NCBI GenBank assembly: GCA_048886185.1
Contig: JBHLKY010000001.1
Location: 1-32,000, forward strand
Length of the DNA: 32,000 nt
Reading direction: 5' to 3'
Origin: Candidatus Hermodarchaeota archaeon
GTDB taxonomy: Archaea > Asgardarchaeota > Heimdallarchaeia > Hodarchaeales > Hodarchaeaceae
Shown here: piece by piece, positions 7,433-26,609 of the stretch
How the letters are laid out: each line of letters begins with the position of its first letter
How positions within the stretch are numbered: the stretch's first letter is position 1
Made by a program: the position numbers and the translations under genes
Notes under the pieces: model-generated
What the model was told of the DNA's origin: nothing
Seen by the model: the letters and a program-made list of their open reading frames with translations, nothing else
Database searches by the model: none

Positions 7433-8119
7433 TTACTCCCCGATGAGTTCTTCGGTCACAAGAAGAGCGATAGCAAGAAGTATAATTGCATGGATGAAGA
7501 GAAGCAAAATGTTATTGACAACATTCAATGGATCTTCAAAAAGGACAAGGCTGGTTGATGCTTGGGTTGCAAGTATGATTGATGGGAGAATCAATGGAAA
7601 AAATAGGATTGGGATTGCTAAAGTCTTAGATTTCGCATAAATAGTCAAGAAAGAAACAATACATCCTGCAACACAAAGATCTAAGGTTCCTATTGTTAAC
7701 ACCACGCAAAGAAGAAGAAAATCAGCTTGGAAGTCTAATCTTAAAAATACAATAGCTAGAATAACAGTTACTATTTCGATGAAAGCTAGAATAACACCTA
7801 AATAGATAAGTTTAGCGAGGAAAATGGCTTGTGGCTTTATTGAGAGGGAAAGTAGCGAATAGATTGAGTTTTTTCTTATCTCGCGAGAAAATACCGAAGT
7901 TAAACCTAACATTACCGAGAACGTAATGATAAACCATAAACTTGCTACAGAAACAGCCTGTTTAGCTTTTAATGATATATCTATTAGATTAAATAGACTA
8001 GAAAAGATCAGTACAGAGGCAAAGGAGAAAAGACCCATTGAAAAGAGTGTTTCCCTTTTCCTAAACTCTAGCAAAATGTCTTTTTTCGCCAGATGATATG
8101 TAGCACTGATTATTGTCAT
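7433..8119 (-). CDS. ccmB: Heme exporter/cytochrome c maturation protein B
   Basis: KDILLEFR, FSRE, IFLAK, LFFPLILP; 6 TM; follows ccmA. Confidence 0.88.
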   Translation of the reverse strand: MTIISATYHLAKKDILLEFRKRETLFSMGLFSFASVLIFSSLFNLIDISLKAKQAVSVASLWFIITFSVMLGLTSVFSREIRKNSIYSLLSLSIKPQAIFLAKLIYLGVILAFIEIVTVILAIVFLRLDFQADFLLLCVVLTIGTLDLCVAGCIVSFLTIYAKSKTLAIPILFFPLILPSIILATQASTSLVLFEDPLNVVNNILLLFIHAIILLAIALLVTEELIGE

Positions 8120-8135: not shown

Positions 8136-8885
8136 TTAATTCTGCTTCTTAAGGAAGTAATCATATTCTGAAGGTTGCAGAATTTTGTCAATTCGACCTT
8201 TCTCAAGATAATATACTTTACTACAGATGTGTGAAATTGAGTTAAAATCATGAGAACAGATTATAACTGTTATATTAGAATCCCGCTCTGTGATAATACG
8301 TTTGATAAATTGTTTATTCTCCACATCTAAACCACTAAAAGGTTCATCAAGTAATACCAATTTAGGTAATTTAGGTGTTGCAACCCTTAACAGTTCAAGT
8401 TTCTTTGCCATCCCTGTTGAGAGTTCATGGGTTGGTCGATCAATATAAAATTTTAAATTATGCTGCTTAACTATCGTATCGATCATTTTTGAGGGATTTT
8501 CTGTTCTTTTATTCATTCTCAGGTAAAATTCGAGGTTTTCACGACCTGTGAAATCATCATAAAAAAAGGAATGACTCAATAACGTCCCAATATCCTTTTT
8601 ATGGATATGATAGTTTTCTTTAATTTCATTACCAAATAATTCTATTTTTCCAGCTGTTGGTTTAATTAATAGAGAGATGATTTTTAGAAGAGTACTTTTT
8701 CCCGCTCCATTGTTTCCTAGTAATCCTATAGTTTCTCCTTCTTCTATTGTCATGTTTATATTTTTTAATGCATTAATGAAGCCGTATACTTTGGAAACTT
8801 GTGTTAATTTAACAACTGGGGTGTTTTGATGATCTAAACTAGCCATCTTATGCAGCTCTGATGCATTAGACCTTCTAAATAGCAT
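8136..8885 (-). CDS. ccmA: Cytochrome c maturation ABC ATPase
   Basis: Walker A GNNGAGKST, LSTGM signature, LLDEP Walker B, SH switch; ccm operon context. Confidence 0.88.
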   Translation of the reverse strand: MLFRRSNASELHKMASLDHQNTPVVKLTQVSKVYGFINALKNINMTIEEGETIGLLGNNGAGKSTLLKIISLLIKPTAGKIELFGNEIKENYHIHKKDIGTLLSHSFFYDDFTGRENLEFYLRMNKRTENPSKMIDTIVKQHNLKFYIDRPTHELSTGMAKKLELLRVATPKLPKLVLLDEPFSGLDVENKQFIKRIITERDSNITVIICSHDFNSISHICSKVYYLEKGRIDKILQPSEYDYFLKKQN

Positions 8886-9070: not shown

Positions 9071-9754
9071 TTACATTTCTTCCATTTTGATTTTTCTTAA
9101 TTGTGCTAATTTTAAATCAATTTTATTAATTCTATATGCCATATACACCAGTACTAATGTTAAAATTCCAATAAATAGAAAATTTAACATTAAATACATT
9201 CCCACTCCTGAGCCAAGTGTCGTTTGTTGAGGAGCTGGATGTAATGCACCGACTACATAGTTAGATAGAGGAACAGAGGGAGAAGTAGCAATTCCAAACA
9301 CTGCGGAAAGCGTGGCTTTCCTCTCATGGTGCCCGTCTTCTAACATTTCTCTGAAAATTAATAATCCAACATAAGCAAACCACATTATTAATGTTGCAGT
9401 CTGCCTAGGTTCCCATTGCCACCAATAACCCCATTCTGGTTTAGACCATATTATTCCGACAATTATTGTTATCGCTCCTACCACAATTCCTGTTTGAGTA
9501 CCTGAAACCAAAAGAAAATCAAATCGTATATCCTTTCTCCACAAATACAAAATACCACTTAGAAGTACAATACCAAAACAGAGATAAGTTGAAAAGGCAA
9601 ATGGAACCATATAAAAAATCGGATGTCCGCTAACAGTGAATCCTTGAAATGGTTTAATCACTATATACACGAAGTAATAGTTAAAAACCATAAAACAAAT
9701 AGCAATAGCGAAAATAATCCAATTGAGGTTATTCCTTACTTTTTCACTTCTCAT
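9071..9754 (-). CDS. ccmC: Cytochrome c maturation protein C
   Basis: WWD domain WSKPEWGYWWQWEPRQT; flanking His (GHP, ALHP). Confidence 0.92.
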   Translation of the reverse strand: MRSEKVRNNLNWIIFAIAICFMVFNYYFVYIVIKPFQGFTVSGHPIFYMVPFAFSTYLCFGIVLLSGILYLWRKDIRFDFLLVSGTQTGIVVGAITIIVGIIWSKPEWGYWWQWEPRQTATLIMWFAYVGLLIFREMLEDGHHERKATLSAVFGIATSPSVPLSNYVVGALHPAPQQTTLGSGVGMYLMLNFLFIGILTLVLVYMAYRINKIDLKLAQLRKIKMEEM

Positions 9755-9784: not shown

Positions 9785-10183
9785 TCAGATCTCACCTTGG
9801 TATTTTGATGGACATTTAGTGCTTATCATAATAGCTTTGAATTTCCATATAATTGTTGTTGAAATGAGTTTTCCTTCAACCAATATGGTCTTACCAGCTT
9901 CAAATCCTGCAGGCTTCTCAACATTAGTTGCGTTAATGTAAATAATCAATGATATGTTATTCACATCATCAGGATCAGTTATAAAGAATCCAGTGTTGTT
10001 AATTTCCTGAACATTACCTATCAGCTGAATCTTGCGATTTATATAGGAATCGGGATTCTTTTGAACCATTAATTCTTTCACAGTGAAAATTGGTACGGAA
10101 GAACTTGTTAATAGATATAAAAATGCGCCTGCGCATATTATGATGATAATTGCAGTAAGTATGACGTTTTTGGATTTAGCCAC
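9785..10183 (-). CDS. ccmE: Heme chaperone CcmE, Cys variant (CxxxY)
   Basis: N-terminal TM, OB-fold-like IQLIGNV...VEGK, terminal TKCPSKY. Confidence 0.92.
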   Translation of the reverse strand: MAKSKNVILTAIIIIICAGAFLYLLTSSSVPIFTVKELMVQKNPDSYINRKIQLIGNVQEINNTGFFITDPDDVNNISLIIYINATNVEKPAGFEAGKTILVEGKLISTTIIWKFKAIMISTKCPSKYQGEI

Positions 10184-12518
10184 TTTTCATACCACCATCA
10201 CTCGTATTTTCGTTCTCTGATAGATCAATTTTAGTATTGTTTTTATCCATTACTTTTTTATCTGGAGAATAACTCTTTTTTAAGAGGATAAATCTACCTA
10301 TTGTTAAGGGTATCATCGCAAAATGAAGGAGAAGACATCCCATCCAGAGAATGTTAATATATGGAATGATTTTTATTTGAAGAGCTGCGGCTTGAAAACT
10401 TCCTAAAGCGTTTTCATAAACACCAATAGTAACAATGTAAATATCGGAAAACAAATCACTTATTATCGTCACTTCATGACCCTGACGATTAACCTTATCA
10501 AAATGAAGGCTACTGATTCCATATCCAATGATCCGTGTTTTTGTCGATAACATGAACTGCGTATTAAATTCGAGACGATGTAGGCCCGAATCAGGAAATT
10601 TTTTTTCCAATTTTATTATAGTAATTGTTAGCGAAGTACCTGGAATTTCTTGGTCACCTATAATAACATCTATATCCTTTGTAATCGTCATGTTTGTACT
10701 CATTAATGCACCAATTAGAATTACTAAGAAAGATAAATGTAGCATTGTTTGGGAAGTTTTACGGAGGAGGTTTTTATTTTCCTTTAATGTAATGTTTATA
10801 AATTCTGCAATCAATCCAATAACTCCTAGAAACAGGAGGGGTAGAACAAAATTTGCTTTGTCGCTGTTGGTCCAGAAGTTATCAAGAAAAGTAAAAATCG
10901 GGTTTTCTTCACCTAACATTTCATACAGTACAGTCCAGAAGATATTAAAAATGGCCATTAATGGATTTTCAGTAAAATCTATCGGGTTTTCAATCAAATT
11001 AGGGTTACGATAGAAAAAACCACTCAATGAAAATGTGACTCCAGCTATTAATCCACTTATCAACAGAGTGAATTTCTTTTTAACGCTTAATCTTGGGTAA
11101 AACGTACAGAAAAACTGCGCAAATAGCAAAACAGCTCCGAAAATTAGAAGAGAATTATTATAGAATAGTTGATCAGTAGGGAAATTAGGAGGGATTGTAA
11201 TATCAAGAACAGGAATAGTTATACCCTGACTAAAACCTTTGGGGTGAAATGTGATTATATATCCTATCACATCATATATTGGAGGAAAAATAAGTCCAAA
11301 AATCATCCAGTAAGTACCTGCAAGGAGAACAATGAAAGATATTTTTAATGCAGTTCTTTGGGATTTTGATGCCTGAAAATCATTTTTATTAAGTGAAAGG
11401 GGGATTTTTGTAATTTCCTTGCTCTTTATTCCATGAAAATGAGGAAGAAGAAAAGTCACTATTATAGCAATAAAAAGAAACAATATCCTTTCTTCCGGGA
11501 TAAATCTTAAAATTATACTCATGAGAAAACTATTTTCAGGAATAAAAAGGATTAAAAATCTTTCTAAGGCGCCATGAGGTACAAATGCGTGAACACTTGA
11601 AATTACACCACTTCGAGTTAGATATGTTACAAATAAGGCACCAATATAGCTCATACTCACAATGTAATTGCTTAAGTATTCTCTTTTGCCAAAGAAAGAT
11701 TTTCCATGAAAATAAAGGGTCATAAAGAGCCAAGGTATCAAGGAACCTGTCTCAACGGGATCCCATGCCCAAAAACCACCCCAACCGAGAGTTATGTAAG
11801 CCCAATAACCACCAATGATAATACCTGTGCTAAGAGCGAGCCAAGCTAATGAAACTGTAAATTCAAAGAAATTATCTAACTTTTCTTTACCTTCAAAGTC
11901 GGGTACTTTACCATCTTCAAGAATAGAAATTCTAGTGATAGCAATGACCATGGGAAGAAAACATAGAGCGTAACTAATGAAAATGATTGGCGGATGGATA
12001 ACATTCCAAATATTCATTAATAATGGATTTAGTCCAAGACCATCTGAAGGTGGAGTTGCATTTATTTTAAAGGGTTCACTTAATAGCGTTAAAAACACAA
12101 TAATTGCTACTTGTGAAGCTGCTAGAACAAAAGAGCGCCAAAAGATGGATTCATGCGCATAATTCCGAAAGAGTGACCTAAAGATTAGATAGAGGATAGC
12201 TATTAGAACTGCCCAAAAGAAATAGCTTCCAGGTTGGCTACTCCAAATGACTGATAATCTCAAGAAAAAATCCATGTCATTGGAGGTATATTCGCTCACA
12301 TAAAAAAAGGTGTAATCAAGGGTAAGAATAGAGTAACTGAAATATAGGAAAGAGATGATAATAGCAATCATCCCAGTAGAAAGACTCATCTCTGAATAAA
12401 GTTCCCATTTTTCAATATATTTTCCCGCTATCAATAGAAAAGCATCGAATAAAAAAGCTATTAATGCGATGACTAGTAATAATACACCTATGTCTATTCC
12501 AAATCCAATGTCAATCAT
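10176..12518 (-). CDS. ccmF: Cytochrome c heme lyase CcmF (single polypeptide)
   Basis: NVIHPP, WAYITLGWGGFWAWDPVETGSLIPWL, TRSG...SVHAF, LHL, PYINILWMG; stop overlaps the ccmE start. Confidence 0.95.
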   Translation of the reverse strand: MIDIGFGIDIGVLLLVIALIAFLFDAFLLIAGKYIEKWELYSEMSLSTGMIAIIISFLYFSYSILTLDYTFFYVSEYTSNDMDFFLRLSVIWSSQPGSYFFWAVLIAILYLIFRSLFRNYAHESIFWRSFVLAASQVAIIVFLTLLSEPFKINATPPSDGLGLNPLLMNIWNVIHPPIIFISYALCFLPMVIAITRISILEDGKVPDFEGKEKLDNFFEFTVSLAWLALSTGIIIGGYWAYITLGWGGFWAWDPVETGSLIPWLFMTLYFHGKSFFGKREYLSNYIVSMSYIGALFVTYLTRSGVISSVHAFVPHGALERFLILFIPENSFLMSIILRFIPEERILFLFIAIIVTFLLPHFHGIKSKEITKIPLSLNKNDFQASKSQRTALKISFIVLLAGTYWMIFGLIFPPIYDVIGYIITFHPKGFSQGITIPVLDITIPPNFPTDQLFYNNSLLIFGAVLLFAQFFCTFYPRLSVKKKFTLLISGLIAGVTFSLSGFFYRNPNLIENPIDFTENPLMAIFNIFWTVLYEMLGEENPIFTFLDNFWTNSDKANFVLPLLFLGVIGLIAEFINITLKENKNLLRKTSQTMLHLSFLVILIGALMSTNMTITKDIDVIIGDQEIPGTSLTITIIKLEKKFPDSGLHRLEFNTQFMLSTKTRIIGYGISSLHFDKVNRQGHEVTIISDLFSDIYIVTIGVYENALGSFQAAALQIKIIPYINILWMGCLLLHFAMIPLTIGRFILLKKSYSPDKKVMDKNNTKIDLSENENTSDGGMKSG

Positions 12519-12537: not shown

Positions 12538-14769
12538 TTAAACCCGTTTGGTTCCTCTTTTAGTCAGTTTTCTACCCCGATTCTTGTCTTTTATCCGTGA
12601 TCTAATTTTCAATGTCTTGCGGGCACTCTTTTTCTTATATTCCACATAAGTGTATAGTCCTGCAGGAACAAAAATGCCTATAACGACCATTACTCCGATA
12701 ATTGATGATAGGGGTAGTTGTGGTGATGCTGGTTGTCCTAGGATGAAAAAAAAGTCGGTGTGACCAAAACTAGTCCTTTGGTTAAAATCCGTTGATTCGA
12801 AATAATAAGCATATGTACCCGGTTCAGGGAGCCCGTCAGGAAAAGTTATTTTCCAAATATGTGTATCAATTCGTTCAAAAAGTTGTGATTTTTCGGGCTG
12901 TCCTTCACGGTGATAGCGTAAACGGACATATTTTACCTCTCCTTGGGATGGGACATCGTGAGCACTTACAATAATTGAAAATTCTTCATGAACTTGTATC
13001 TCTATTCCAGGAATAAATCCAATTTCCTGAACTTCAGGAGGCCATTTATCAATCTGCCAGAGGAAAGAGTATTCACCTCGCACAGTTTGAATGTTTAAGG
13101 TGTTGGTAATAATGATATTGAAATCGACTGTTGTACCATTACTATTTGGGGAAATATTACTTAATGTAGTATTGAACATATTCCCAATGAAATGAGGGAT
13201 CATCTCTTTTAAAATATAATCGCCATTATTTATTGAATAGTTAAGAAAAACGTTTGAAATACCATTAGAATCAAACGCAGCTATTAAGATAGTTACTTTG
13301 TCTTGAGGACGGGGGACAGAAGGTGACCAAAGGACATTAAGTGCACCTGGTTTGCTATACATCCATAAATTTGCTAGGGCATAGATAGCTAGTGATTGAG
13401 TGACGGCAAATTTGTTCTTCCAAGAAGGATCATCACTTTGAGTCCCATCCGCGTTTGTTAATTGATAATATCCTCCATTAACTTGATCGTAGAGCTTAGT
13501 ATTGAGAACTTCGACTGTATCAAGTATAAAATTATAAAAAATATTATTATCTGTAAGTTTATACGCTTCATCAAGAGCCCGAATACCATAAAATTGCCTT
13601 TCAGTAAATTTTGTTGTGTCATCTAAATCGGAATCAATGTAAGAATTAGTTGCAATAAATCCCCCGTAAGTATTATCCCAGAAGTGGAGCAATACTGAAT
13701 AAAGTACCTGAAAAAAATCATCAAAATAATTCGGATTCTCTGTGACATTATATAGATTGGCTAGAAATTCTAGAACAAGGGAATTAATGAATAGATCAGT
13801 CGTTTCAGAGTCAGGGTAAACTAATTTACGAGTACTATCTACTCCTGTATAGAAAAGGTAACTGACATTATTTCGACACGTTGTATTAATGATATCATAA
13901 ACTTGAAGAGCTTTTGTTAAATATATTACATTCGAGTCTACTCGATAAAGATCAAGTAAAGCGTTTCCCATTAAAGCGTTATGATCCACTCGGAGGGATC
14001 GTGGTTCATATGGATCTAGGGGATTAGGATTTTCGAGTAAAGGACTTCCAGAGTGAGAGGTCATATAAATGTAATAGTCATTCGTTTCATCCCAAGTCCA
14101 TTTATCTATTAAATTAAAAGTCTCAATTGCCATATTTAAATAAGTAGAACTACCAGTTGCTTTGTAAAGAGCTATTAAGGCTTGAATGGCTTTCGCTTGA
14201 ATTCCTGGCCTTTTATAACGATCTGATGTACTAGTAAAAAATCCACCAAAATCTGGATCCCATAGGTTTGTTAACAATCCATTAATTGTTTTTTCAGCAA
14301 TGTTTAGAGCAAAATCTCTTTCTGTCTGGCTAATTACGGCCTCGGCAAGCTTGATTAAAGCTAAAATCGCTTGAGCATTATCATATGTTCGTTTTTCAGT
14401 ATTAATAGCAATTGTCTCCCATTGTTCATTTGTTGAGAAATAAAACCCGTTAGAATCATTATCATAGAGATTCTTGACAAGTAAGTTCGCAATTTCAATC
14501 GAGTAAAAAAGAAAATTAGGAAAATAAGCTTCAGAATCTGTATCTTGAGTAAATTCCTCTAATTTAAGATCGATAGAATTCTCCTTAATAGGTTCACCAT
14601 TGAGATTCTGAAAAAATTTCTGATTTGTAGACTCATTATCACTTGAAAGAATGTTTAAGGTAGAAAAAGGCAGTATGCTTGATAGAACTGTAATAAGCAA
14701 TAATACTGAGAGAAATGAATATGTTAACCATTTTTTTACTTTTGGACGAATGTTCAAAGTTCTATTCAT
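12538..14769 (-). CDS. Membrane-anchored extracellular (alpha/alpha)6-barrel protein (AGE/GH76/YyaL-like) with C-terminal Ig-like domains
   Basis: Signal/TM at N-terminus; EKRTYDNAQ and repeated LWD/LYD..GG(F/Y) motifs; beta-rich C-terminal region, TM and basic tail. Confidence 0.7.
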   Translation of the reverse strand: MNRTLNIRPKVKKWLTYSFLSVLLLITVLSSILPFSTLNILSSDNESTNQKFFQNLNGEPIKENSIDLKLEEFTQDTDSEAYFPNFLFYSIEIANLLVKNLYDNDSNGFYFSTNEQWETIAINTEKRTYDNAQAILALIKLAEAVISQTERDFALNIAEKTINGLLTNLWDPDFGGFFTSTSDRYKRPGIQAKAIQALIALYKATGSSTYLNMAIETFNLIDKWTWDETNDYYIYMTSHSGSPLLENPNPLDPYEPRSLRVDHNALMGNALLDLYRVDSNVIYLTKALQVYDIINTTCRNNVSYLFYTGVDSTRKLVYPDSETTDLFINSLVLEFLANLYNVTENPNYFDDFFQVLYSVLLHFWDNTYGGFIATNSYIDSDLDDTTKFTERQFYGIRALDEAYKLTDNNIFYNFILDTVEVLNTKLYDQVNGGYYQLTNADGTQSDDPSWKNKFAVTQSLAIYALANLWMYSKPGALNVLWSPSVPRPQDKVTILIAAFDSNGISNVFLNYSINNGDYILKEMIPHFIGNMFNTTLSNISPNSNGTTVDFNIIITNTLNIQTVRGEYSFLWQIDKWPPEVQEIGFIPGIEIQVHEEFSIIVSAHDVPSQGEVKYVRLRYHREGQPEKSQLFERIDTHIWKITFPDGLPEPGTYAYYFESTDFNQRTSFGHTDFFFILGQPASPQLPLSSIIGVMVVIGIFVPAGLYTYVEYKKKSARKTLKIRSRIKDKNRGRKLTKRGTKRV

Positions 14770-15031: not shown

Positions 15032-16678
15032 TTAGGATCGTCTTTTTCTGATGAAATAAGAGGAAACACCTAAAATACCTAATACAGCTAATAATCCAAT
15101 TGCAGGAGCGGTTTCTGTGGTTGTTATTGTTTCGATAACTGTTTTCTCCACTGTTTTCTCAACAGTGTGGTCAACAGTGTGGTCTACGGTGTGGTCTACG
15201 GTGTGGTCTACGGTGACGTCTACTGTGACTGTTGGGTTGATCGCACTAGCAATAGCAGCATTTGCTTCAACGATGGCTTCATCTAGTTTGACTAATGCCA
15301 AGGATAGCTGTTGTTCAGCAGTAGGGGACAATGGGCTGTGGAAAGTACCTTCGTTTGGGACTAAGGCTTCTGCTTCCTCAATCAATGCTTTTGCGTTTGC
15401 GAGATTGTTGGTATCAACACCAATTGTACTTTTGGCTTCATCATATTTGGCTGTGGCTTCTGCTAATTTGGTATCGTACAATGCTTTCGCATCAGTCAAA
15501 TTACCGAAGTTTGCCATATATGTTTGCATGGTTGCCCAGACTGTAGCGTTGTCGTTTCCATGGCATAAACCACACACTTCTCCTGGGTCACCTCCAGAGA
15601 ATCTCCAATTGTGATTGAGGGTAGAAAATGATCCAGGTGTTTCGACAGTCCCGTTAGGGAAATATTTGGTAGGTGTATATGTGTAACCATGGCAATCGGT
15701 ACAAGCTAACATTGTGTGGTTACTTGGGTCTGTGAAGTATGCTGTGCTAGTGTTAAGGCTGATATCGTGGCAAATTCCACAAAGTTCGTTAACTGTTGCA
15801 GCTCGTAATTGACTTCCACCTGGTCCAAATTCCTGGCCAGTATACGGATTAGTATATGGACTCATTGCATGTGATTCGTCACCAGCGTTAACAGAAGCAT
15901 CGTGAGGATCGTGGCATGTGACGCATGTGATAGTGTACCAATCACTGGAATTCAGCTCTGCGACATTCATGTAAGTACTCTGTCCAATATAGTGCTCCAG
16001 ATTAGTCAGTGAATTTATATCACCGCTAGCAAGCAAACCACTAAGAGAGTTATAGTGTTTACTTTGGATGTAGCCCATCCATTGCATTCCACCAGGCGTG
16101 TGACAGCTTCGACATGTCATATAACTGAGGCTTTTTACTCCTGGTTCTGGATGACATGCTGCACAAGAAACACCAATATCCCAGATGTTGCTAGTCATAT
16201 TTTCATAAGCTGGGTTTGTTGGATCTCCAGTAACGTTATACCACCTTGTAGTCATGCAACATTGTTGCCCTGAAGCATTAAATAGCTCACTATAGTTCCA
16301 ATAATTTATAGGGTTGGCAAGGGTATTTGGGGTTCGCCAATAATGTGTTGAATTGTAGGACACTTTGCTACCATTTTTTGCATTATCAAGTGGATCATAT
16401 TCTCCAACTATTTGAGCATGCCATGTTTCGTTCCAACTAGCAATTATATCGTCATGACAACCAGAGCCTGAGCAATCTTCAGGATGCCAAGGGTCTCCAA
16501 TAGCAGCGTGCCAAGAATCGTCAATTGCTTCAAATCTATATTTTGGATCTAAGATTGTTACACCTAGACCTGCAGCAGCAGCTGTTCCGAGGAAGACGAT
16601 GGCAAACCAATAGAATAAGACAACCCTGCGGCCACTCCAATTGCTTTGACGAACTAGTATTTCGTCTTGTTCATTCAT
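15032..16678 (-). CDS. Surface-anchored multiheme c-type cytochrome (c554-like N-terminus, NrfA/HAO/OcwA-like helical C-terminus)
   Basis: Six CxxCH, one CX4CH, one CCM; signal peptide; helical bundle ending GTFHSP; Thr/Val stalk, TM and RKRRS tail; about 12 N-x-S/T sequons. Confidence 0.92.
   Translation of the reverse strand: MNEQDEILVRQSNWSGRRVVLFYWFAIVFLGTAAAAGLGVTILDPKYRFEAIDDSWHAAIGDPWHPEDCSGSGCHDDIIASWNETWHAQIVGEYDPLDNAKNGSKVSYNSTHYWRTPNTLANPINYWNYSELFNASGQQCCMTTRWYNVTGDPTNPAYENMTSNIWDIGVSCAACHPEPGVKSLSYMTCRSCHTPGGMQWMGYIQSKHYNSLSGLLASGDINSLTNLEHYIGQSTYMNVAELNSSDWYTITCVTCHDPHDASVNAGDESHAMSPYTNPYTGQEFGPGGSQLRAATVNELCGICHDISLNTSTAYFTDPSNHTMLACTDCHGYTYTPTKYFPNGTVETPGSFSTLNHNWRFSGGDPGEVCGLCHGNDNATVWATMQTYMANFGNLTDAKALYDTKLAEATAKYDEAKSTIGVDTNNLANAKALIEEAEALVPNEGTFHSPLSPTAEQQLSLALVKLDEAIVEANAAIASAINPTVTVDVTVDHTVDHTVDHTVDHTVEKTVEKTVIETITTTETAPAIGLLAVLGILGVSSYFIRKRRS
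15138..15233 (-). repeat. In-frame 12-bp tandem repeat, about 8 imperfect units, encoding TVTV-DVTV-(DHTV)4-(EKTV)2
   Basis: Plus-strand units ACTGTTTTCTC(C/A) x2, AC(A/G)GTGTGGTC(A/T) x4, ACGGTGACGTCT, ACTGTGACTGTT. Confidence 0.95.
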
Positions 16679-16717
16679 TAATAAACACCGGAATTTTAGT
16701 TTGTTTTTGTGTTATTT

Positions 16718-17304: not shown

Positions 17305-18645
17305 TTATCTATTGCGATGTTGTCGTTTAATCAGGGTGATGATGAGTACCCAGCTAATGAGTCCAATGAGAATAATTTCCATCTCAAATCCTGGGGCTCC
17401 ACCGAAATCTACGCTTGAAGGTTTATCAAGGACATTATCTGTTTCAAGTACCACACGAATATACATCTGATGGGCAATCTCATCTGCATCTTGGATTTCG
17501 AATTCACATAAGTAGTAGCTGTCTATCGATGTGGTACTATCCCATGTATATTCGTAGGTGATCCACTCTTCAATGTTTCCACTGCTACTCAAAGATACAG
17601 ATAATTCTTTTCGTGCTCCATTACTGTCAGGTTCATCTGTGCTTGGATCATAATCGTCTAATGCATAAACTGTGAAAGTAACTGAAGATATCCCGTTATC
17701 ATCTTTTACAGCCACCATAAAGTAAATATCATCTGATTCTGCTTTATAATCTGAGGGTTCCACTTCAGTAAGGTTCTCAGGAAGATCAGAATAACTGAGG
17801 CTCCATTCAGGAGGGTCTTTCTTCTCTACAACTGGTTTTTCTTCTCCTTCTAAAACGAAAAAGTCAATTTTCTCTCTGATTATATGTTGATCATCATCTA
17901 TATCTGTTGCGGTCACATTAAGCCAATGGGTGCCAATAAATAACTTGGAAACATTGTATAAGTAGTAATAATAACCTGATGCATCGTCATAGGTCATGAG
18001 TTGGCTTGCACGACGATCGATTTGCGCTTTCACTTCGAGAAGCCCCAGGTCATCTGTAACGCTAACTTGGAATAAATATAAGCCTTCCAAGGTCTCATTA
18101 CTAGTACTGGGAGTAATAAAATCAATTGTTGGGGGATTAGTAACAGCTCCGATTGCGGTAAATCCAAATACCGCTGAATTCCAATTTCCTGATCTATCAC
18201 CTGCATAAACATATAATAGGTATTTTCCCTCCGTTGTTGGTAGATCCACCTTGTAAATGAAATCCTCGTCTGACTCTTCTAATGTGGTATTACTACTATC
18301 GGTACCCCAATGGTAACGGACGTCAGTTGCTTTGTTATCATCAAAGGGATTATTATCTATTATGCTGATACGAATTGTGGTGCCTCCTGGAGTAAAGGAA
18401 TTATTAGCAGGTGAGGCGAGTTGTATTGAGGGAGGAGTGGTGTCCGTATGACCACAACACGCATCTTGTTGAATATCCTTCACTTTCCCTTGTGATTCTT
18501 CTGTTATAATAAGATCATCATAAATATCTCTATTTCCACCATTCGAAGAATCTGCAGCTATTCCAATGATAAATAATCCTCCGATATAGGCAGAAATGGT
18601 AATTATGGTAATTAATAGCACTGAACGAGTCAATTTTTGGTTCAA
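17305..18645 (-). CDS. Surface protein with three Ig-like domains and a PGF-CTERM-type archaeosortase signal
   Basis: Signal peptide; domains open with DTTPP, TNPPT, KDPPE; ends GAPGFE + TM + KRQHRNR. Confidence 0.8.
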   Translation of the reverse strand: MNQKLTRSVLLITIITISAYIGGLFIIGIAADSSNGGNRDIYDDLIITEESQGKVKDIQQDACCGHTDTTPPSIQLASPANNSFTPGGTTIRISIIDNNPFDDNKATDVRYHWGTDSSNTTLEESDEDFIYKVDLPTTEGKYLLYVYAGDRSGNWNSAVFGFTAIGAVTNPPTIDFITPSTSNETLEGLYLFQVSVTDDLGLLEVKAQIDRRASQLMTYDDASGYYYYLYNVSKLFIGTHWLNVTATDIDDDQHIIREKIDFFVLEGEEKPVVEKKDPPEWSLSYSDLPENLTEVEPSDYKAESDDIYFMVAVKDDNGISSVTFTVYALDDYDPSTDEPDSNGARKELSVSLSSSGNIEEWITYEYTWDSTTSIDSYYLCEFEIQDADEIAHQMYIRVVLETDNVLDKPSSVDFGGAPGFEMEIILIGLISWVLIITLIKRQHRNR

Positions 18646-18866: not shown

Positions 18867-19634
18867 TTGCACTTCTCTATGGAAATGAAGAAAAATAAAA
18901 ACATAAGGTTGGTTATAAATTTGAGTCGGTTTATTAAAATTCTCTATGCATTGACTGGTGCTGCAGCTGCCATTGGTATTGTTAGTGCTATAGGTAGTAC
19001 CTGTGTTTCCCTTGATCCTTATTGGCAAAAAGCCACGTTCGCTATTGCAGGGGAATACTCAGAAGTTTGGTTTGTCACTTATTTTGTGACATGGTTTGCC
19101 GCGATTGTTTGGGGCATACTGTTCTGGGCGTTGCGCGCCCGTAAATCATGGTTCTATCCTCTTGCTATTATAAATAGTATTCTGGGTTTTATTGGCAGAG
19201 GTGTTCCTGCCATTCTCATGTCTATTGGCTTTTTCTCGAAACCTCGGACAGGATTGCTGTTCACTCCTTCGTGGGCTTCAGCTTTACTTAATTTGGCTAT
19301 TCTTATTATTTTGCTAATTCCTGCTTTCAAACAACAAGTTAAAAACCATCTGGAAAGCGTTGGTACTTCTTCTGGTGGTAGTGTTGGTTCTCAGGTGTCT
19401 GAATTTGCTTCAGTGCTCTTTGGTTTTGGGATTGTAATGCTTCTTCAGCCATTAATTATGCCTACTCACATTATTGATGGGGTGAATATTGCCTCTTCTT
19501 ATGGGTATCTTTTAGCCTCTGGACTTCTTCAGTTTTATGGCGGGTTGTCCTGTCTTGTACTGGGAATTCTTACACGAATTGCAGGTCGCTTACTAACTAT
19601 TTATTCCTCTAAACCTTTACCTTTAGAAGCTTAA
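18867..19634 (+). CDS. Hypothetical polytopic membrane protein
   Basis: About 6-7 TM; first gene of the plus-strand run; true start may be the ATG at 18882. Confidence 0.75.
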   Translation: MHFSMEMKKNKNIRLVINLSRFIKILYALTGAAAAIGIVSAIGSTCVSLDPYWQKATFAIAGEYSEVWFVTYFVTWFAAIVWGILFWALRARKSWFYPLAIINSILGFIGRGVPAILMSIGFFSKPRTGLLFTPSWASALLNLAILIILLIPAFKQQVKNHLESVGTSSGGSVGSQVSEFASVLFGFGIVMLLQPLIMPTHIIDGVNIASSYGYLLASGLLQFYGGLSCLVLGILTRIAGRLLTIYSSKPLPLEA

Positions 19635-19685
19635 GAAGGTTCTAATTAGAAAACAACAGTCTATATTCAGTCTATATTAATTGAA

Positions 19686-21284
19686 GTGGTGACTAAAATG
19701 ACAACTGTACAAAAAACAGAAGGAATAATTCCATGGTTAAAGTATAAAATTAATTATGGGTTGACTTTTAAGGGTATGATCACATTTACAATTGTTTGGG
19801 AGTTCTGTATCATACTCTTCTTATCCACTTTTTCCGAACCCATCAAGCTCGTCTTAGGACAACCATTATTTCCCATAACATTAGATCCTGATCCCATTGA
19901 GAAAGCGGGTCGTCTTGTCATGATTTATCATTCGATTGCGGTGCCGTTCATTGCTACTTGTACCTATTTTGTCATGGAAATTATGGATGTAAGAGAGAAA
20001 TTAAAATCCCGTATCAAATTCCCATTATTTTTTGGGAGTATTTTAGCTTCCGCAAATGCTGTATTATTTACGTATATCTTTCCAGAGGCGTGGATCCTCC
20101 ACGGCTTGTACTTGGTTGGATTGTCTCTCTGTTTTTATGCTGGTATCCTACTACTGATTGGGGTTTTTCCAACAAAATCTTTTCCACCTCGTGATTCAGA
20201 AAATAGTCGTAATATTTTATTAGAACAAGTTGCATTAACATTACTTGCTATCTGTATCTTAATAAGCGTTGTTCTTGGAGCATCGGTTGGAGCTTTTTTT
20301 GGTCAAGAAGGTTTATCAGTAATGCTAGCAGAATATTTCCTCAGACATGATATGTATCCTTATGAGGTTGCAGAGCTCTTTATCGATGCCATTAAAGCCC
20401 ATCTGCATGTCATGCTCGCGTTAATCGACGTAATTATTCTGTTAGTGGTCTATCGGTACACTGTGACTAACCAAAAAGGTAGATGGCATCTCATATCTAT
20501 GATTCTTGTTATTCCAGGAATGCTCATCCTATCATTAGGTGCTTGGTTTGTAACTCTCAACTCTGTAGTTGATTGGCCATTTGATATGCATTATCTAATC
20601 TATGTGGGATCTGCGATTCTCGTAACTGTGGGTGTCATACTCGCTTTCACTGGGTGGAGTAAAACAAGCAAAGAAATCCTTGGTGATGCTTATGAATCAG
20701 CTTCTTGGTTCACTCGTACCAAAGCTGTTTTCAAAGCTCCAGTCAAATTTGCTCTGTACTTCCAATTTATCTGGGTAAATTTTGTCATGACTTTTGGTGG
20801 GATATTCCTTGCGCTTAGTCTTCGAGGATCTACTGATCCAGAAGGTGCCTCACCTCTAACAAACGTTTTAGGACTAGTTTCGTTTCGAGATGGCCCACTA
20901 GCGATTGAAACTACAGTAGCACGTGGTCATTGGCACGTTTTAGCTACTTTATCTGCAATTATTTTACTCCTCCTCTGTATTGACATACTGGACATACAAG
21001 GTTTAGCACGAAAGGTAATGGCTTGGTTGTTGTTTGCTGGAAGTATTTTGGCATTTGGATTTGCATTAATTTATTTGTATTTTCCACACCTTGACCAGAC
21101 TTGGGCAACAAATTTAACTAAATATGCAGATGTACAGGAATTCTGGGATGCTACGGCATTTTGGTTACCTCTTGTCATTGATCTTGGAATAATGCTGTTT
21201 GTCATTGCATTAGTCATCTTTTGTTTCTATCAGTTAATCGAAATTATCAAAGGAAGAAAAGATGTTATTAATTTTCCAGAATAA
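19686..21284 (+). CDS. 12-TM heme-copper-oxidase-fold homologue with non-canonical His set
   Basis: 12 hydrophobic helices in three 4-helix units; His in TM2 (H82), TM6 (H239xH241), TM10 (GHWH, H415/H417), TM4 (H139), TM8 (H302). ORF is certain; family is by eye. Confidence 0.6.
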   Translation: MVTKMTTVQKTEGIIPWLKYKINYGLTFKGMITFTIVWEFCIILFLSTFSEPIKLVLGQPLFPITLDPDPIEKAGRLVMIYHSIAVPFIATCTYFVMEIMDVREKLKSRIKFPLFFGSILASANAVLFTYIFPEAWILHGLYLVGLSLCFYAGILLLIGVFPTKSFPPRDSENSRNILLEQVALTLLAICILISVVLGASVGAFFGQEGLSVMLAEYFLRHDMYPYEVAELFIDAIKAHLHVMLALIDVIILLVVYRYTVTNQKGRWHLISMILVIPGMLILSLGAWFVTLNSVVDWPFDMHYLIYVGSAILVTVGVILAFTGWSKTSKEILGDAYESASWFTRTKAVFKAPVKFALYFQFIWVNFVMTFGGIFLALSLRGSTDPEGASPLTNVLGLVSFRDGPLAIETTVARGHWHVLATLSAIILLLLCIDILDIQGLARKVMAWLLFAGSILAFGFALIYLYFPHLDQTWATNLTKYADVQEFWDATAFWLPLVIDLGIMLFVIALVIFCFYQLIEIIKGRKDVINFPE

Positions 21285-21331
21285 GTAACTCTACTTATTC
21301 AACATCTTTTCAATCGTGGAATGACTCCTAC

Positions 21332-22276
21332 ATGAATGAAGCGGATTCCCCTTCGCAGGAATATGAACAACTAGTACCCCCATTATATCCCCCGCTCTCT
21401 ATTTCTACTTATGGTGAACTGATTAAAAGCAAGCAAACATTTCTTCTACTCTATACAGCAATATTTGCTTATTTTATTAGTGCTTGGCAGGCAGGTTTCG
21501 ACTTGTGGGCTTTTCTTTGGTTCACTGTAAGTCTTTTCTTTGCAATTTCTGGGTCAACACTCCTCAATATGTATGTTGATCGTGATATTGATGCTTTAAT
21601 GGAAAGAACAAAGCAACGTCCTTTGCCTAGTAGGCGTATTCCTCCCTCAACTGTATTAAAACATGGAATTCTTTTCACAGTAGCAGGTACAGTTGTAGTA
21701 GGTATATTTACTAATATTATTACGATGATCGTCGTTTTTTTGGGATTCTTCTTTGATGTAGTGGTTTACTCATTGTTGTTAAAACGACGAACTAGAGTAT
21801 CAATTATTTTTGGTGGTATTGCTGGAGGACTCCCAGCTATTGCTGGCCGAACTGCAGTTCTGGGCTATATTGATCTTCCTGCAATATTGATGGGATTCTT
21901 TGTCTTATGTTGGATTCCCTTACATATACTCACGCTTGCTCTGATTCCAAAAAATCTAGAAGGGTATAAGAATGCGAGGGTTCCCATGTGGCCAGTGGTC
22001 AGTAGCCAAACCCAGACAATACGTGTTGTAACATCATCAGCAATTTTAAGTGCTTCCATTGTTGTCTTGACTGGAATAAGCTTACAAATAAATTTTCTCG
22101 TTCTTTTCCCATTAATTTTGTTCTGTGCCTTCATCCTCTTTCAAGCTTTTGCTAATCTTAAACAACCATCTCAACCAAGAACATTTAAGATTTTTAAGTT
22201 AGCATCAATCTTTATGGCTTTTGCATTTCTCTGGTTATATGTAGGAGTGGTTTTAACTTCGTTTTTACCATTATAA
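21332..22276 (+). CDS. ctaB: Protoheme IX farnesyltransferase (heme O synthase), paralog 2
   Basis: Same motifs as 294..1247; roughly three-quarters identical by eye. Confidence 0.92.
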   Translation: MNEADSPSQEYEQLVPPLYPPLSISTYGELIKSKQTFLLLYTAIFAYFISAWQAGFDLWAFLWFTVSLFFAISGSTLLNMYVDRDIDALMERTKQRPLPSRRIPPSTVLKHGILFTVAGTVVVGIFTNIITMIVVFLGFFFDVVVYSLLLKRRTRVSIIFGGIAGGLPAIAGRTAVLGYIDLPAILMGFFVLCWIPLHILTLALIPKNLEGYKNARVPMWPVVSSQTQTIRVVTSSAILSASIVVLTGISLQINFLVLFPLILFCAFILFQAFANLKQPSQPRTFKIFKLASIFMAFAFLWLYVGVVLTSFLPL

Positions 22277-24569: not shown

Positions 24570-24886
24570 TTTTTTGTTATTTCTTATGGCGTGAAATTTC
24601 CGAGCTTCAGTTATTTAAAGTTTTTTTGTCTTATTCTCTTTTTTAAATGAATTTTATCTGTTTTTAGTGTAAATTCTTCTTCTTTACTTACTCAATTGAG
24701 CTAAAGTGAGAAAAATTTTTCATCTTTCTTTAAGAAAAAAATGTAAAAAATGTAAAAAGATATATTTATTAATTAAATTGAATTAATTATGATACAGATA
24801 AAATCTTTCACAAAATCAACCCTACAATTTGAAATTCGATTTTATCTGAAGATGGCGCTTTGTGTGCTCTGTATGTGGATGTAAAG

Positions 24887-25849
24887 ATGAAAACCATTAG
24901 AAGGAAAATTAAAATATTTCTCTTTGTAACATTTTTTAGTTTAAGTAGTTTAACAGTTCTGAATGCACTAGGAAAAGTCTCTGCTGATCAGGTAGGCTTT
25001 ATAGCACCGAAAATTACCTTTCAAATCGATCTGAATGATGGACAAATTGCATCTTTCTGGTCCAAAATCAATTCGTATCAAGACATCACCGAATTTGGAG
25101 GAAGTGGTTTTGTGAAATTCGCGAATAATGGAACTCACCTGTTTGCTCTGCTAGTAAGCTCAAGTGATAATGTATGGATTTCAGTTGAATTTGAGCCAGA
25201 TTCCTCTTTGTGTATGAAGAATTTAAATGATGGTTGGTCTTTTTACATTAATAAGGATGAACAGACAGTTTTAGCTAAAGATGTTAAGTTCAGGGGTACT
25301 GTCATTCCAACAGATGATGCGAAAAATGATCTATCTATTGAAAGTATATTTTCAGAGGGTTTGGTCTATATTGAGACAATTCGATCTTTTGATACTTCAG
25401 ACTTAAATGGATATGATATTACTTTTCATAACGCTAGCACTAATTTTCTTAAGTTTGCGTCTGATAGGAATCATTTTGGTAATCATGAAATTTACTATCT
25501 CTATGTTTATATTCCTGCTGATCAACCTAGTAATGAAACAAGTGGTAGTGAAACAATAGAACCCACTGATCCCTATAATACCGAAACAACTGAAACAAGT
25601 GAGGAAATTATCGTCATTCCCACCGATATTCCTGATATTCCAATTCCAGAGGGAGTTGACCTAAATCAGGTGAAGTTTCTATTACTAGGTATCACCCCAT
25701 TTGGCATCTTTGGCTTTGTAAGTATTCATTTGATCCGTCGAGTTTTCTACAGTCCTATAAGTCACGATCACGGTAGGATAGTTTCAAGTTCGTGGAAAGC
25801 TCCTACATTTATCGAAAGATTCAAGGACACCTTTCTTTCTAAAAAATAG
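24887..25849 (+). CDS. Extracellular DOMON-like heme b-binding protein with C-terminal TM anchor
   Basis: Signal peptide; DLNDG..W, CMKNLNDGW (candidate Met ligand), ETIRSFDTSD..YDI, NHFGNH (candidate His ligand); Pro/Thr/Glu linker, TM. Confidence 0.7.
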   Translation: MKTIRRKIKIFLFVTFFSLSSLTVLNALGKVSADQVGFIAPKITFQIDLNDGQIASFWSKINSYQDITEFGGSGFVKFANNGTHLFALLVSSSDNVWISVEFEPDSSLCMKNLNDGWSFYINKDEQTVLAKDVKFRGTVIPTDDAKNDLSIESIFSEGLVYIETIRSFDTSDLNGYDITFHNASTNFLKFASDRNHFGNHEIYYLYVYIPADQPSNETSGSETIEPTDPYNTETTETSEEIIVIPTDIPDIPIPEGVDLNQVKFLLLGITPFGIFGFVSIHLIRRVFYSPISHDHGRIVSSSWKAPTFIERFKDTFLSKK

Positions 25850-25883
25850 GAGATTACACTCTTTTTTTCTTTTAAATAAATCG

Positions 25884-26609
25884 TTGGTAGCAAAAATGAC
25901 AACAGCATACATAAAGGATAATAAAAAAATAGAATCAGCGGATATCAGTGAGGACATTACCGTTGTAAGATATAATAATCTTCAGAGGATTCATCATTGG
26001 ATTCATGTTTTTATCATGATCTTCTTCTTCTTTACTGGATTCGAGTTATTTATTAAAGTGTATTTCGTTGGAGATTATTTCCTAACACGATCTCTTCATT
26101 TCATTTTAGGGATTTTCACTGGGTTTTGGGATATTATCTTTTTCGGTGCAATCCTAATTGGATATGGAAAAATCAATGAAATCATTCCTTATCCTAGAGA
26201 TTTCCTTGATATTGTCATAATTTTCCTTTGTGCAATAAAAATTCTTCCCGATGAGAAGTATCCTGAGTATGATTTTTACGTTAGAGAGAAACAGAAATAT
26301 GTTATGAAATATCACCCCCTTCAAAAGCTTCTAACAGTAAGTAATATTCTTATGATTTTTCTGATGGGAGTTACAGGTATTGTTCTTGCAGAGGAACTCG
26401 TTCCTGGATCTACGGGAATATTAAGTATTATAGGATCATTGGCATTTCCTTTTCAAATGTTTAAAATCGATCTTCGGTTCATCCACTTTGGTATCTATCT
26501 CTACTTTCTCTTTACTACATTAATTCACTTTTATTTTGCACTAATCCCCCAAAATCGACACCGTTTAAGGGGTATGGTGACTGGTAAAGAGAAAATTCCA
26601 ATTAATTAA
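25884..26609 (+). CDS. Di-heme cytochrome b, FdnI/HyaC type
   Basis: RYNNLQRIHHWIH, RSLHF, YHPLQK, and two His 14 residues apart in the last TM (FIHF...LIHF); ATG alternative at 25896. Confidence 0.88.
   Translation: MVAKMTTAYIKDNKKIESADISEDITVVRYNNLQRIHHWIHVFIMIFFFFTGFELFIKVYFVGDYFLTRSLHFILGIFTGFWDIIFFGAILIGYGKINEIIPYPRDFLDIVIIFLCAIKILPDEKYPEYDFYVREKQKYVMKYHPLQKLLTVSNILMIFLMGVTGIVLAEELVPGSTGILSIIGSLAFPFQMFKIDLRFIHFGIYLYFLFTTLIHFYFALIPQNRHRLRGMVTGKEKIPIN

Follow-up and report, generated by a model that had tools for sequence, protein, structure and literature searches.

The question raised by this locus is whether a multiheme cytochrome c can keep a heme at a site where the usual CxxCH motif has given way to two adjacent cysteines and a methionine (CCM). 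The window analyzed here, 32,000 nucleotides of DNA from Candidatus Hermodarchaeota archaeon (contig JBHLKY010000001.1, positions 1 to 32,000), carries on its minus strand an open reading frame (ORF) of 548 codons without internal stops (15032-16678), the product of which we call P0001. P0001 is a cytochrome of the OcwA/MccA kind whose catalytic heme positions show motif states not described before, and it is linked to its own heme lyase. From the alignments and tree described below we think it probable, if by a modest measure, that heme 2 has been retained at the CCM motif, attached through Cys141 and ligated by Met142, in what would be an octaheme protein.

A regular-expression scan of P0001 identifies six CxxCH motifs (Cys172, Cys189, Cys252, Cys300, Cys326 and Cys369), against 0.015 expected from composition-preserving shuffles, together with C69-SGSG-C74-H75 (CX4CH), the vicinal C140-C141-M142 inside QQCCMTT, and the segments SKH (206-208), TNLEH (225-229) and GTFHSP (444-449). 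This bears out the inventory of an earlier reading made from the letters of the DNA (hereafter the sequence-only reading). The protein has 16 cysteines, every one of which lies within the eight heme-type motifs.

An Asgard-specific branch of the OcwA/MccA/NrfA superfamily

P0001 falls within a branch of the OcwA/MccA/NrfA superfamily that is confined to Asgard archaea. Among 5.8 billion proteins searched there were 39 relatives, and all those with a named source are from Asgard archaea (Hodarchaeales, Heimdallarchaeota, Thorarchaeota and Promethearchaeota, to which a later profile search added Hermodarchaeota); among 1.84 billion cluster representatives, searched exhaustively, there were only 33 matches. 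The profile search leaves a clear gap between the Asgard family, at 313 bits or above, and the next matches, at 134 bits or below, which are OcwA-like cytochromes from bacteria and Methanoperedens. A family match is present in 51 of 400 species genomes of the phylum; these comprise 16 of the 21 genomes in the window's own group (f1), with the remainder in a distant lineage (f31) and a single f32 genome.

The superfamily's ancestral layout has nine hemes, 1-4 in a c554-like module and 5-9 in an NrfA-like one, with a helical bundle after them. When compared with structures in the PDB, the family profile matches MccA (E-value 3e-22), OcwA (9e-22), octaheme nitrite reductase (1e-14), NrfA (5e-13) and cytochrome c554 (6.9e-07, over profile positions 64-168, the N-terminal module), and also the undecaheme S-layer cytochrome 6qvm. 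A HMMER alignment sets the nine motif positions of P0001 one to one against those of OcwA. An AlphaFold2 (AF2) model of trimmed P0001, built on an alignment of 86 sequences, reached a predicted local distance difference test score of 83.7 and a predicted TM-score of 0.77; an earlier full-length model on 35 sequences was too poor for use (58.6 on the first of these scales). Foldseek TM-scores for the model are low, up to 0.41, because it contains no hemes, and VIA-align Z-scores were used instead: the best match is OcwA (12.2 over 313 residues), followed by 6qvm (11.6), octaheme nitrite reductase (9.4), HAO (9.2), NrfA (8.8, C-terminal module only, model residues ~136-436) and MccA (7.4). The model predicts C-terminal helices at 367-391, 395-417, 423-439 and 454-477 (model numbering plus 45), which align with the helix bundle of OcwA, MccA and NrfA. 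The OcwA-like, NrfA-superfamily layout is thus present in full: a c554-like module, an NrfA-like module and a C-terminal bundle of long helices. The earlier description of P0001 as an OcwA-related, surface-tethered multiheme cytochrome c with a c554-like N-terminal part is supported.

OcwA of Thermincola potens (PDB 6I5B), a nine-heme surface terminal reductase (PMC6703420), shares with P0001 both the order of its modules, a c554-like tetraheme part, an NrfA-like pentaheme part and a three-helix bundle, and its exposure at the surface of a cell without an outer membrane. The two proteins are only about 20% identical. OcwA has CxxCH at all nine sites, whereas P0001 has seven His-containing motifs plus CCM, and site 5 is absent; relative to OcwA, the Asgard proteins have also gained a conserved N-terminal anchor, a glycosylated stalk and a C-terminal tail of the sorting type. 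A distal His-His pair after site 4 is found in only a few homologues (P0024, P0034 and P0035). P0001 shares its eight-site layout with MccA (PDB 4RKM), the octaheme sulfite reductase of Wolinella succinogenes: there is no heme 5, and the active-site position is that of heme 2. The one non-standard motif of MccA, which needs a dedicated lyase (PMC3601427), is a CX15CH at heme 8 rather than at heme 2, and its heme 2 is His-ligated. All 16 cysteines being accounted for, P0001 has no CX15CH, and it has no Cys outside its eight motifs that could form the MccA-type copper site of two cysteines on the distal face of heme 2.

The N-terminal module of P0001 resembles Nitrosomonas europaea cytochrome c554 (PDB 1BVB/1FT5), which is soluble and tetraheme, with CxxCH at each of its four sites. 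The catalytic heme of NrfA, bound by CXXCK, provides a precedent for a non-His proximal ligand within the motif; this heme corresponds to heme 5 of OcwA, and that site is deleted in P0001. The NrfA model PF02335 was not among the Pfam matches of P0001 at E <=1, nor was there an NrfA match in NCBIfam. The name "nitrite reductase c552" that the Prokaryotic Genome Annotation Pipeline gives to several homologues is therefore unsupported for P0001, in which the NrfA-equivalent catalytic site has no Cys. Literature searches on CXXCM, on multiheme cytochromes of Asgard or Heimdall archaea and on cytochrome c of Hodarchaeales returned no description of the family or of the motif.

CCM stands at the position of heme 2

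In the HMMER alignment CCM-TT falls on the heme-2 motif of OcwA, CAGCH-VT, and also on a CEVCH motif of MccA. OcwA has two five-coordinate hemes that are its putative active sites, 2 and 5; MccA, which is without heme 5, uses heme 2; and heme 2 is the five-coordinate heme of c554 (PMC6703420). As CCM and TNLEH map to OcwA hemes 2 and 5, it is exactly the two "catalytic" positions of the superfamily that are altered in P0001: where OcwA has two His-ligated five-coordinate hemes, P0001 has Met at site 2 and no site 5.

Both sites are CxxCH in all nine outgroup sequences from bacteria and Methanoperedens, and lineage f31 (nine loci) has CxxCH at site 2. Within f1 the states of site 2 are many: CX2CH, CX2CK (once, in P0050), CX2CM (19, of which 16 are CxHCM), CX3CH, CX7CH and CX9CH, CCH (15), CCM (17), and CX2C followed by Trp, Arg or Phe, once each. 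On a tree built without the site-2 columns, the motif has changed at least 12 times and the ligand residue at least nine times. The proposal that CCM is an altered second heme site thus holds, with the addition that it is one state among several at this position.

Amid this variation some residues do not change. Cys141 is present in every aligned family sequence, and both it and Thr144 are invariant in two family alignments (A1, 35 sequences; A2, 19 sequences); Trp146 is also fixed. Of 62 family sequences, 58 have Met or His directly after Cys141, and one more has Lys. The 13-residue segment around CCM, NASGQQCCMTTRW, has a conservation of 0.97 within the clade, and among 422 such segments the heme-3 motif alone scores higher; their clade mean is 0.72, and the remnant of site 5 scores 0.58. 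CCM itself occurs in 17 of 62 aligned family sequences, so the motif is conserved, lies exactly on the second heme motif and is not peculiar to one sequence.

An assembly error is excluded by these 17 homologues and by the CCM codons (16253-16261), which are unchanged in Logan contigs from two independent studies (X5, an estuary metagenome, and X6). That CCM arose by any error of sequencing or assembly, or that the gene is a decaying pseudogene, is scarcely credible: the frame is intact, the homologues come from independent metagenomes, the X5 and X6 contigs keep the codons but differ from the window elsewhere in the P0001 gene, and the segment is strongly conserved.

Loss of site 5 and variation in motif spacing

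The second catalytic position has had a different fate. HMMER aligns the CLHCM of relatives with the heme-5 motif of OcwA, CLKCH, and the site reads C-x-H-C-M in 47 of 60 scored family sequences, five of the family having Val, Leu or Gln for the Met; all nine f31 loci show C-x-H-C-M as well. All 47 of the CX2CM motifs at this site carry His at -1. Site 5 has been lost only in the clade that holds P0001 and P0010, where both cysteines, the His and the Met are gone and variable, often aromatic-rich segments stand in their place. The sequence-only reading had suggested that TNLEH is a decayed heme site. The Cys pair of the relatives and the CLKCH of OcwA agree with this; what decayed in this family was a CxHCM, however, and no ordinary CxxCH.

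At site 1, Cys69, Cys74 and His75 are invariant, and the spacing is CX2 in 53 sequences, CX4 in 13, CX9 in two and CX1 in two. The CX4CH of P0001, also proposed earlier as a heme motif, is a true variant of heme site 1, and one ordinary spacing variant among many; the spacing is CX2, CX3, CX7 or CX10 at site 4 of the homologues and from CX2 to CX11 at site 9.

Is heme 2 retained?

Three options had been put forward for CCM: a new motif for heme attachment or ligation, a disulfide in place of a lost heme, or a catalytic metal site. The pattern of substitutions favours the first. In the mechanism that we propose, heme 2 would still be present in P0001, which would make it an octaheme protein, and would be attached through the invariant Cys141 by at least one thioether; Cys140 might contribute a strained second bond or have another role, and Met142 would take the place of the proximal His. 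Met ligation normally raises the potential, and a terminal heme with this different ligand field may have a higher potential or an altered reactivity relative to its counterparts in bacterial relatives.

The alternative is that heme 2 was lost as heme 5 was, leaving a seven-heme wire. The Cys pair and Met would then fill or replace the old pocket as a vicinal disulfide, as a redox switch or as a small site for a metal such as copper. Cys, His and Met are a typical set of copper ligands. Heme 2 stands at one end of the heme chain of OcwA (PMC6703420), so that its loss would leave the wire intact. We regard this outcome as unlikely, although it deserves serious weight. The P0001 clade offers an internal control for true loss, namely site 5, where all motif residues have decayed; site 2 keeps Cys141, a ligand-competent residue at +1, Thr144 and Trp146. 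On the tree the His motifs of site 2 (CX2CH, CX3CH, CX7CH, CX9CH and CCH) are nested among Met motifs, and the site-2 pocket must therefore have stayed a heme pocket; repeated loss and regain of the site would, on these sequences, be much less parsimonious than retention. The expanded CXnCH loops are, moreover, typical of heme sites and not of disulfides. Six His residues outside the motifs are common to the family and the outgroups (His87, His208, His259, His321, His356 and His447), which equals the number of distal His ligands for the bis-His hemes of OcwA.

Several points weigh against retention with Met142 as ligand, and the first two also speak for the loss of heme 2. A 2024 list of known heme c motifs includes CXC(H/K) of the Kuenenia tetraheme cytochrome, CX3CH, CX4CH, CX11CH, CX15CH, CX17CH and CX2CK, and with CX4CH it covers site 1 of P0001; it contains no Met-terminated or zero-spacing motif, and hence none of CCM, CCH and CxHCM (PMC11492766). 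With zero spacing and Met, CCM lies outside the described attachment motifs, in which two cysteines 1-17 residues apart are followed by His or Lys. Engineered CXXCM, CXXCK and CXXCR were not matured by the general Ccm system of E. coli, according to the account of Allen et al. (2005) given in PMC4158909, and the only CXXCM that a full-text search brought up was an engineered one, which did not mature. By our own geometric estimate, adjacent cysteines can hardly reach both vinyls in the canonical arrangement. Euglenozoan cytochrome c and heme c(n) of the b6f complex are natural examples of heme held by a single Cys. At +1 of site 2 three basal members carry Trp, Arg or Phe, and at site 5 Val, Leu or Gln occurs in five members; such residues cannot ligate iron, and thus the motif residue is not always a ligand. 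The substitutions at site 2 are also among the points in favour of its loss. The notion of a CcmF heme lyase strictly dedicated to the family is weakened, finally, by two genomes that also carry a CcmF not adjoining a family cytochrome.

The true ligand could instead be the residue at -1, which in CCM is Cys140. This belongs to a further alternative, in which heme 2 is held by Cys141 but Met142 is not an axial ligand, the face being occupied by the Cys140 thiolate, by a residue from outside the motif such as His57, or by no protein ligand. Among the CX2C members at site 2, His is found at -1 in 16 of 19 with Met at +1 and in none of 13 with His at +1; taken with the 47 of 47 at site 5 and with Cys at -1 in every CC motif of site 2, this would suit a ligand at -1, as would the members whose +1 residue cannot ligate. 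The association of His(-1) with Met(+1) at site 2 rests, however, on about two independent contrasts (median p 0.5). There are precedents: octaheme tetrathionate reductase takes a Lys ligand from beyond the motif, NrfH uses the Met of CXXCHXM, and in cytochrome b6f the heme c(n), bound by one Cys, is ligand-free. In canonical motifs, by contrast, the side chain at -1 faces away from the iron, and the two classical ligands, Met and His, make up 58 of the 62 residues at +1, with Lys adding one more, and have interchanged repeatedly, as expected of a ligand position. We consider this alternative improbable, more so than the loss of heme 2.

His57 (codon 16508-16510), just past the N-terminal membrane helix, is present in 98% of the family and 11% of the outgroups, and an equivalent His is visible in lineage f31. 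This Asgard-specific residue is a candidate additional heme ligand, and its conservation counts towards a ligand from outside the motif.

The maturation genes and their linkage to the cytochrome

If heme 2 is retained on CCM, the non-standard motif has to be matured. Downstream of P0001 and on the same strand lie genes for an (α/α)6-barrel protein (AA6), CcmF, CcmE, CcmC, CcmA and CcmB (Table 1). The five Ccm proteins are recognized by Pfam, and the CcmE is of the CPSKY type, as in System I*, the archaeal variant of the Ccm pathway in which CcmE has this Cys and not the heme-binding His (PMC3601427). No CcmH-like gene was noticed in the window, and no search of the genome with a CcmH model was made. 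The best NCBIfam match of the CcmF is NrfE/CcmF, below the cut-off, and its translation has a WWD-type motif and flanking His residues. AA6 has weak PDB matches to alpha-1,6-mannanase and cellobiose 2-epimerase, and almost no Cys; handling of the glycans of the glycosylated cytochrome, a chaperone function or a role as partner are candidate roles.

The order cytochrome-AA6-CcmF is found in 22 of 25 family loci, in both lineages and including the window's own. The genome from which the window comes (4.84 Mb, 96% complete) contains just two ORFs in which CxxCH occurs at least twice, and these are the two family paralogues, each with its own AA6 and CcmF; mono-heme cytochrome c domains (PF00034 and PF13442) were not found in it. 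The paralogous module, on contig 54 (locus L009, 415-6487), encodes a cytochrome of 473 residues (P0032), an AA6 of 722 and a CcmF of 742; P0032 has a CX4CH motif, CX9CH at site 2, CMHCM at site 5 and a PGY tail. The Ccm system of these genomes appears to serve this one cytochrome family alone. In a CcmF tree the lyases encoded beside CCM-type cytochromes, that of the window included, form one clade (97*), and those beside CX9CH-type cytochromes form another (100*). The lyases group by cytochrome type and not by genome, and the pairs have therefore been inherited together since an old duplication. The number of CcmF copies equals that of family cytochromes in 13 of 17 genomes. At the locus of the closest homologue, P0002 (L001, 14208-18877), two tandem CcmF genes follow one cytochrome gene and one (α/α)6 gene.

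CXXCK and CX15CH motifs need dedicated lyase paralogues (PMC3601427), and a specialised CcmF is accordingly the most economical account of how a non-standard motif could be matured. The CXXCK of NrfA offers a close likeness, served as it is by the NrfEFG or NrfI lyase, a CcmF paralogue encoded beside the cytochrome. We suggest that the motif of P0001 is probably attached by the downstream System I*, chiefly by the co-inherited CcmF, and that AA6, encoded between cytochrome and CcmF, may assist; that this CcmF is "dedicated" we infer from linkage.

A broader proposal can be made only tentatively, and we would not call it likely: that CxHCM, CCH and CCM are natural heme c motifs of a new kind, with Met, or else the residue that precedes the second Cys, standing in for the proximal His; that they are installed by a co-evolving pair of CcmF and (α/α)6 protein; and that the whole forms an Asgard surface electron module with two re-tuned terminal hemes. 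Were heme bound at CCM and CxHCM, these would be the first natural c-type motifs with Met at the ligand position or with zero Cys spacing. The rules by which hemes are counted in genomes would be extended, and the family would supply a natural pair of substrate and lyase for studies of motif recognition by CcmF, given that the general E. coli system rejects CXXCM. Counts restricted to CxxCH misjudge the heme content of this cytochrome family.

Table 1. Features of the cytochrome gene P0001 and its downstream genes in the window.
Feature	Position	Strand	Basis
Multiheme cytochrome c gene P0001, 548 aa, Asgard-specific OcwA-like family	15032..16678	-	ORF, homologues, PDB profile, AF2 model
N-terminal cytoplasmic stretch, Arg-Arg and hydrophobic helix (signal-anchor), residues 1-43	16550..16678	-	Conservation; helix prediction 16-43
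Heme site 1, C69-SGSG-C74-H75 (CX4CH)	16454..16474	-	Aligns with OcwA heme-1 CKTCH
Heme site 2 position, C140-C141-M142 (CCM)	16253..16261	-	Aligns with OcwA heme-2 CAGCH-VT and an MccA CEVCH
Heme site 3, C172-AA-C175-H176	16151..16165	-	Invariant CxxCH; aligns with OcwA CEQCH
Heme site 4, C189-RS-C192-H193	16100..16114	-	Motif scan, family alignment
Heme site 5 remnant, residues 219-233, SLTNLEHYIGQ, no Cys	15980..16024	-	Aligns with OcwA heme-5 CLKCH
Heme site 6, C252-VT-C255-H256, then D-P-H259	15911..15925	-	Invariant
Heme site 7, C300-GI-C303-H304	15767..15781	-	Invariant
Heme site 8, C326-TD-C329-H330	15689..15703	-	Invariant
Heme site 9, C369-GL-C372-H373	15560..15574	-	Motif scan, family alignment
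C-terminal long-helix bundle, residues ~365-480, including invariant F-H447-x-P	15239..15586	-	Predicted helices; OcwA/MccA/NrfA alignment
Stalk with (DHTV)4(EKTV)2 repeat, Thr-rich linker, APAIG, hydrophobic helix, RKRRS tail	15035..15238	-	Translation
(α/α)6-barrel protein (AA6), 743 aa, exported, immunoglobulin-like C-terminal part, membrane anchor	12538..14769	-	Pfam GlcNAc_2-epim 1.6e-12, GH76
CcmF-type heme lyase, 780 aa	10176..12518	-	Pfam Cytochrom_C_asm 3.8e-26, CcmF_C
CcmE, archaeal System I* type (CPSKY)	9785..10183	-	Pfam CcmE; C-terminal ...TKCPSKYQ
CcmC	9071-9754	-	Pfam Cytochrom_C_asm
CcmA	8136-8885	-	Pfam ABC_tran
CcmB	7433-8119	-	Pfam CcmB

Membrane anchoring, stalk and tail

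The predicted topology is that of an N-glycosylated protein tethered to the membrane at both ends. The N-terminal ~43-45 residues are near-invariant in f1 (Met1, Glu6, Leu8, Trp14, Arg18, Tyr23, Trp24, Gly31, Ala35 and Gly37), and f31 has a different segment there that is equally conserved; such conservation points to a signal-anchor that is retained and contacts some component of the membrane. N-x-S/T sequons are abundant, as had been claimed, and number 14 by scan rather than the 12 or so first counted (6.4 +/- 2.2 expected, P ~0.002); three of them are kept in 42-51 of 62 homologues.

At the C-terminus a His/Thr-periodic repeat is followed by a Thr-rich linker, TTTETAPAIG, a hydrophobic helix and RKRRS. 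The tails of the family alternate between PGF(E/D) and (P/S/T)A(I/V)G. That of P0001 has no PGF and scores 13.7 bits with the Heimdall-CTERM model, against a cut-off of 24; the tail of the homologue P0020 reaches 23.9 bits with the same model, and that of the paralogue P0032 scores 25.6 bits with Loki-CTERM, above the cut-off of 19.9. The LPXTG motif is absent from P0001 (TIGR01167, 12.8 bits against a cut-off of 15.9), and a search of the window genome for archaeosortase PF09721 gave no match. TIGR04125 (archaeosortase A) found two ORFs below threshold, of 253 and 277 residues (29.9 and 24 bits, cut-off 75). The "sortase-type" anchoring of the sequence-only reading is thus no more than loosely supported: the tail resembles the Heimdall- and Loki-CTERM signals of homologues, but it scores low and LPXTG is absent, and the archaeosortase-like ORFs of the genome are weak matches. 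Those two ORFs lie at L032 (C7:165684-166007) and L033 (C8:72080-72403), and they may be divergent sorting enzymes for tails of the Heimdall- and Loki-CTERM kinds.

GTFHSP is no anchor signal: it is the invariant (G)FHNP of the family, it lies inside the helical bundle about 70 residues upstream of the hydrophobic helix, and it has counterparts in OcwA (GVHNY) and MccA (GMHGF).

The stalk varies between strains. Relative to the (DHTV)4(EKTV)2 repeat of the window, the X5 contig lacks six bases at 15121 and carries seven substitutions within 15161-15188; the heme-domain sequence is far less variable. In P0020, from a complete Heimdallarchaeota genome, the stalk (L002, ~11380-11500) is a Cys-Pro-rich CX2CP/CX5CP repeat and not a Thr-rich linker. 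The stretch 16679-16700 upstream of the P0001 start is conserved across family loci (in-frame reading ...YGGIL-M...) and contains a putative ribosome-binding site.

Physiological context and neighbouring genes

The most likely function of P0001 is to move electrons between a donor in the membrane and an acceptor that is extracellular or at the cell surface. Heimdallarchaeia and Hodarchaeales, in which the family is found, are the archaea most closely related to eukaryotes. A culture-based preprint on Heimdallarchaeia reports cytochrome c to be absent, from searches with mono-heme domains (10.1101/2025.02.26.640444), and another preprint mentions cytochrome c biogenesis genes in this group (10.1101/2024.07.04.601786). 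With a full Ccm system seemingly kept for one family, the capacity of these archaea for respiratory or extracellular electron transfer has probably been under-described. P0001 is less likely to be the donor to the heme-copper oxidase of Heimdallarchaeia, because one oxidase from Hodarchaeales was shown to be a quinol oxidase, inactive on the cytochrome c of a commercial assay kit (10.1101/2025.11.07.685452).

A pair of genes on the plus strand of the window (24860-26609) encodes a 329-residue exported DOMON-like protein and a cytochrome b561-type (Ni_hydr_CYTB) membrane protein. Such a pair also lies a few kb from a family cytochrome at L003, L015, L017 and L018, and it is a candidate for the transmembrane input of electrons.

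In two f31 loci (L021, 10500-17400; L024, 305-7663) the module comes right after a Nuo/Mrp-like operon with a ferredoxin-type subunit and four antiporter-like subunits. This operon was rejected as a conserved membrane partner in f31, being directly upstream in only two of nine loci. A flavin mononucleotide reductase gene follows CcmF in four f31 loci.

Other neighbours of P0001, at 18867-22276 on the plus strand and 17305-18645 on the minus strand, encode a membrane protein of 255 residues, a 532-residue protein with 12 transmembrane helices, a UbiA/heme-O-synthase-like prenyltransferase and a Big_7 surface protein. These genes recur beside the module at the f1 loci L001, L010, L012, L013 and L016.

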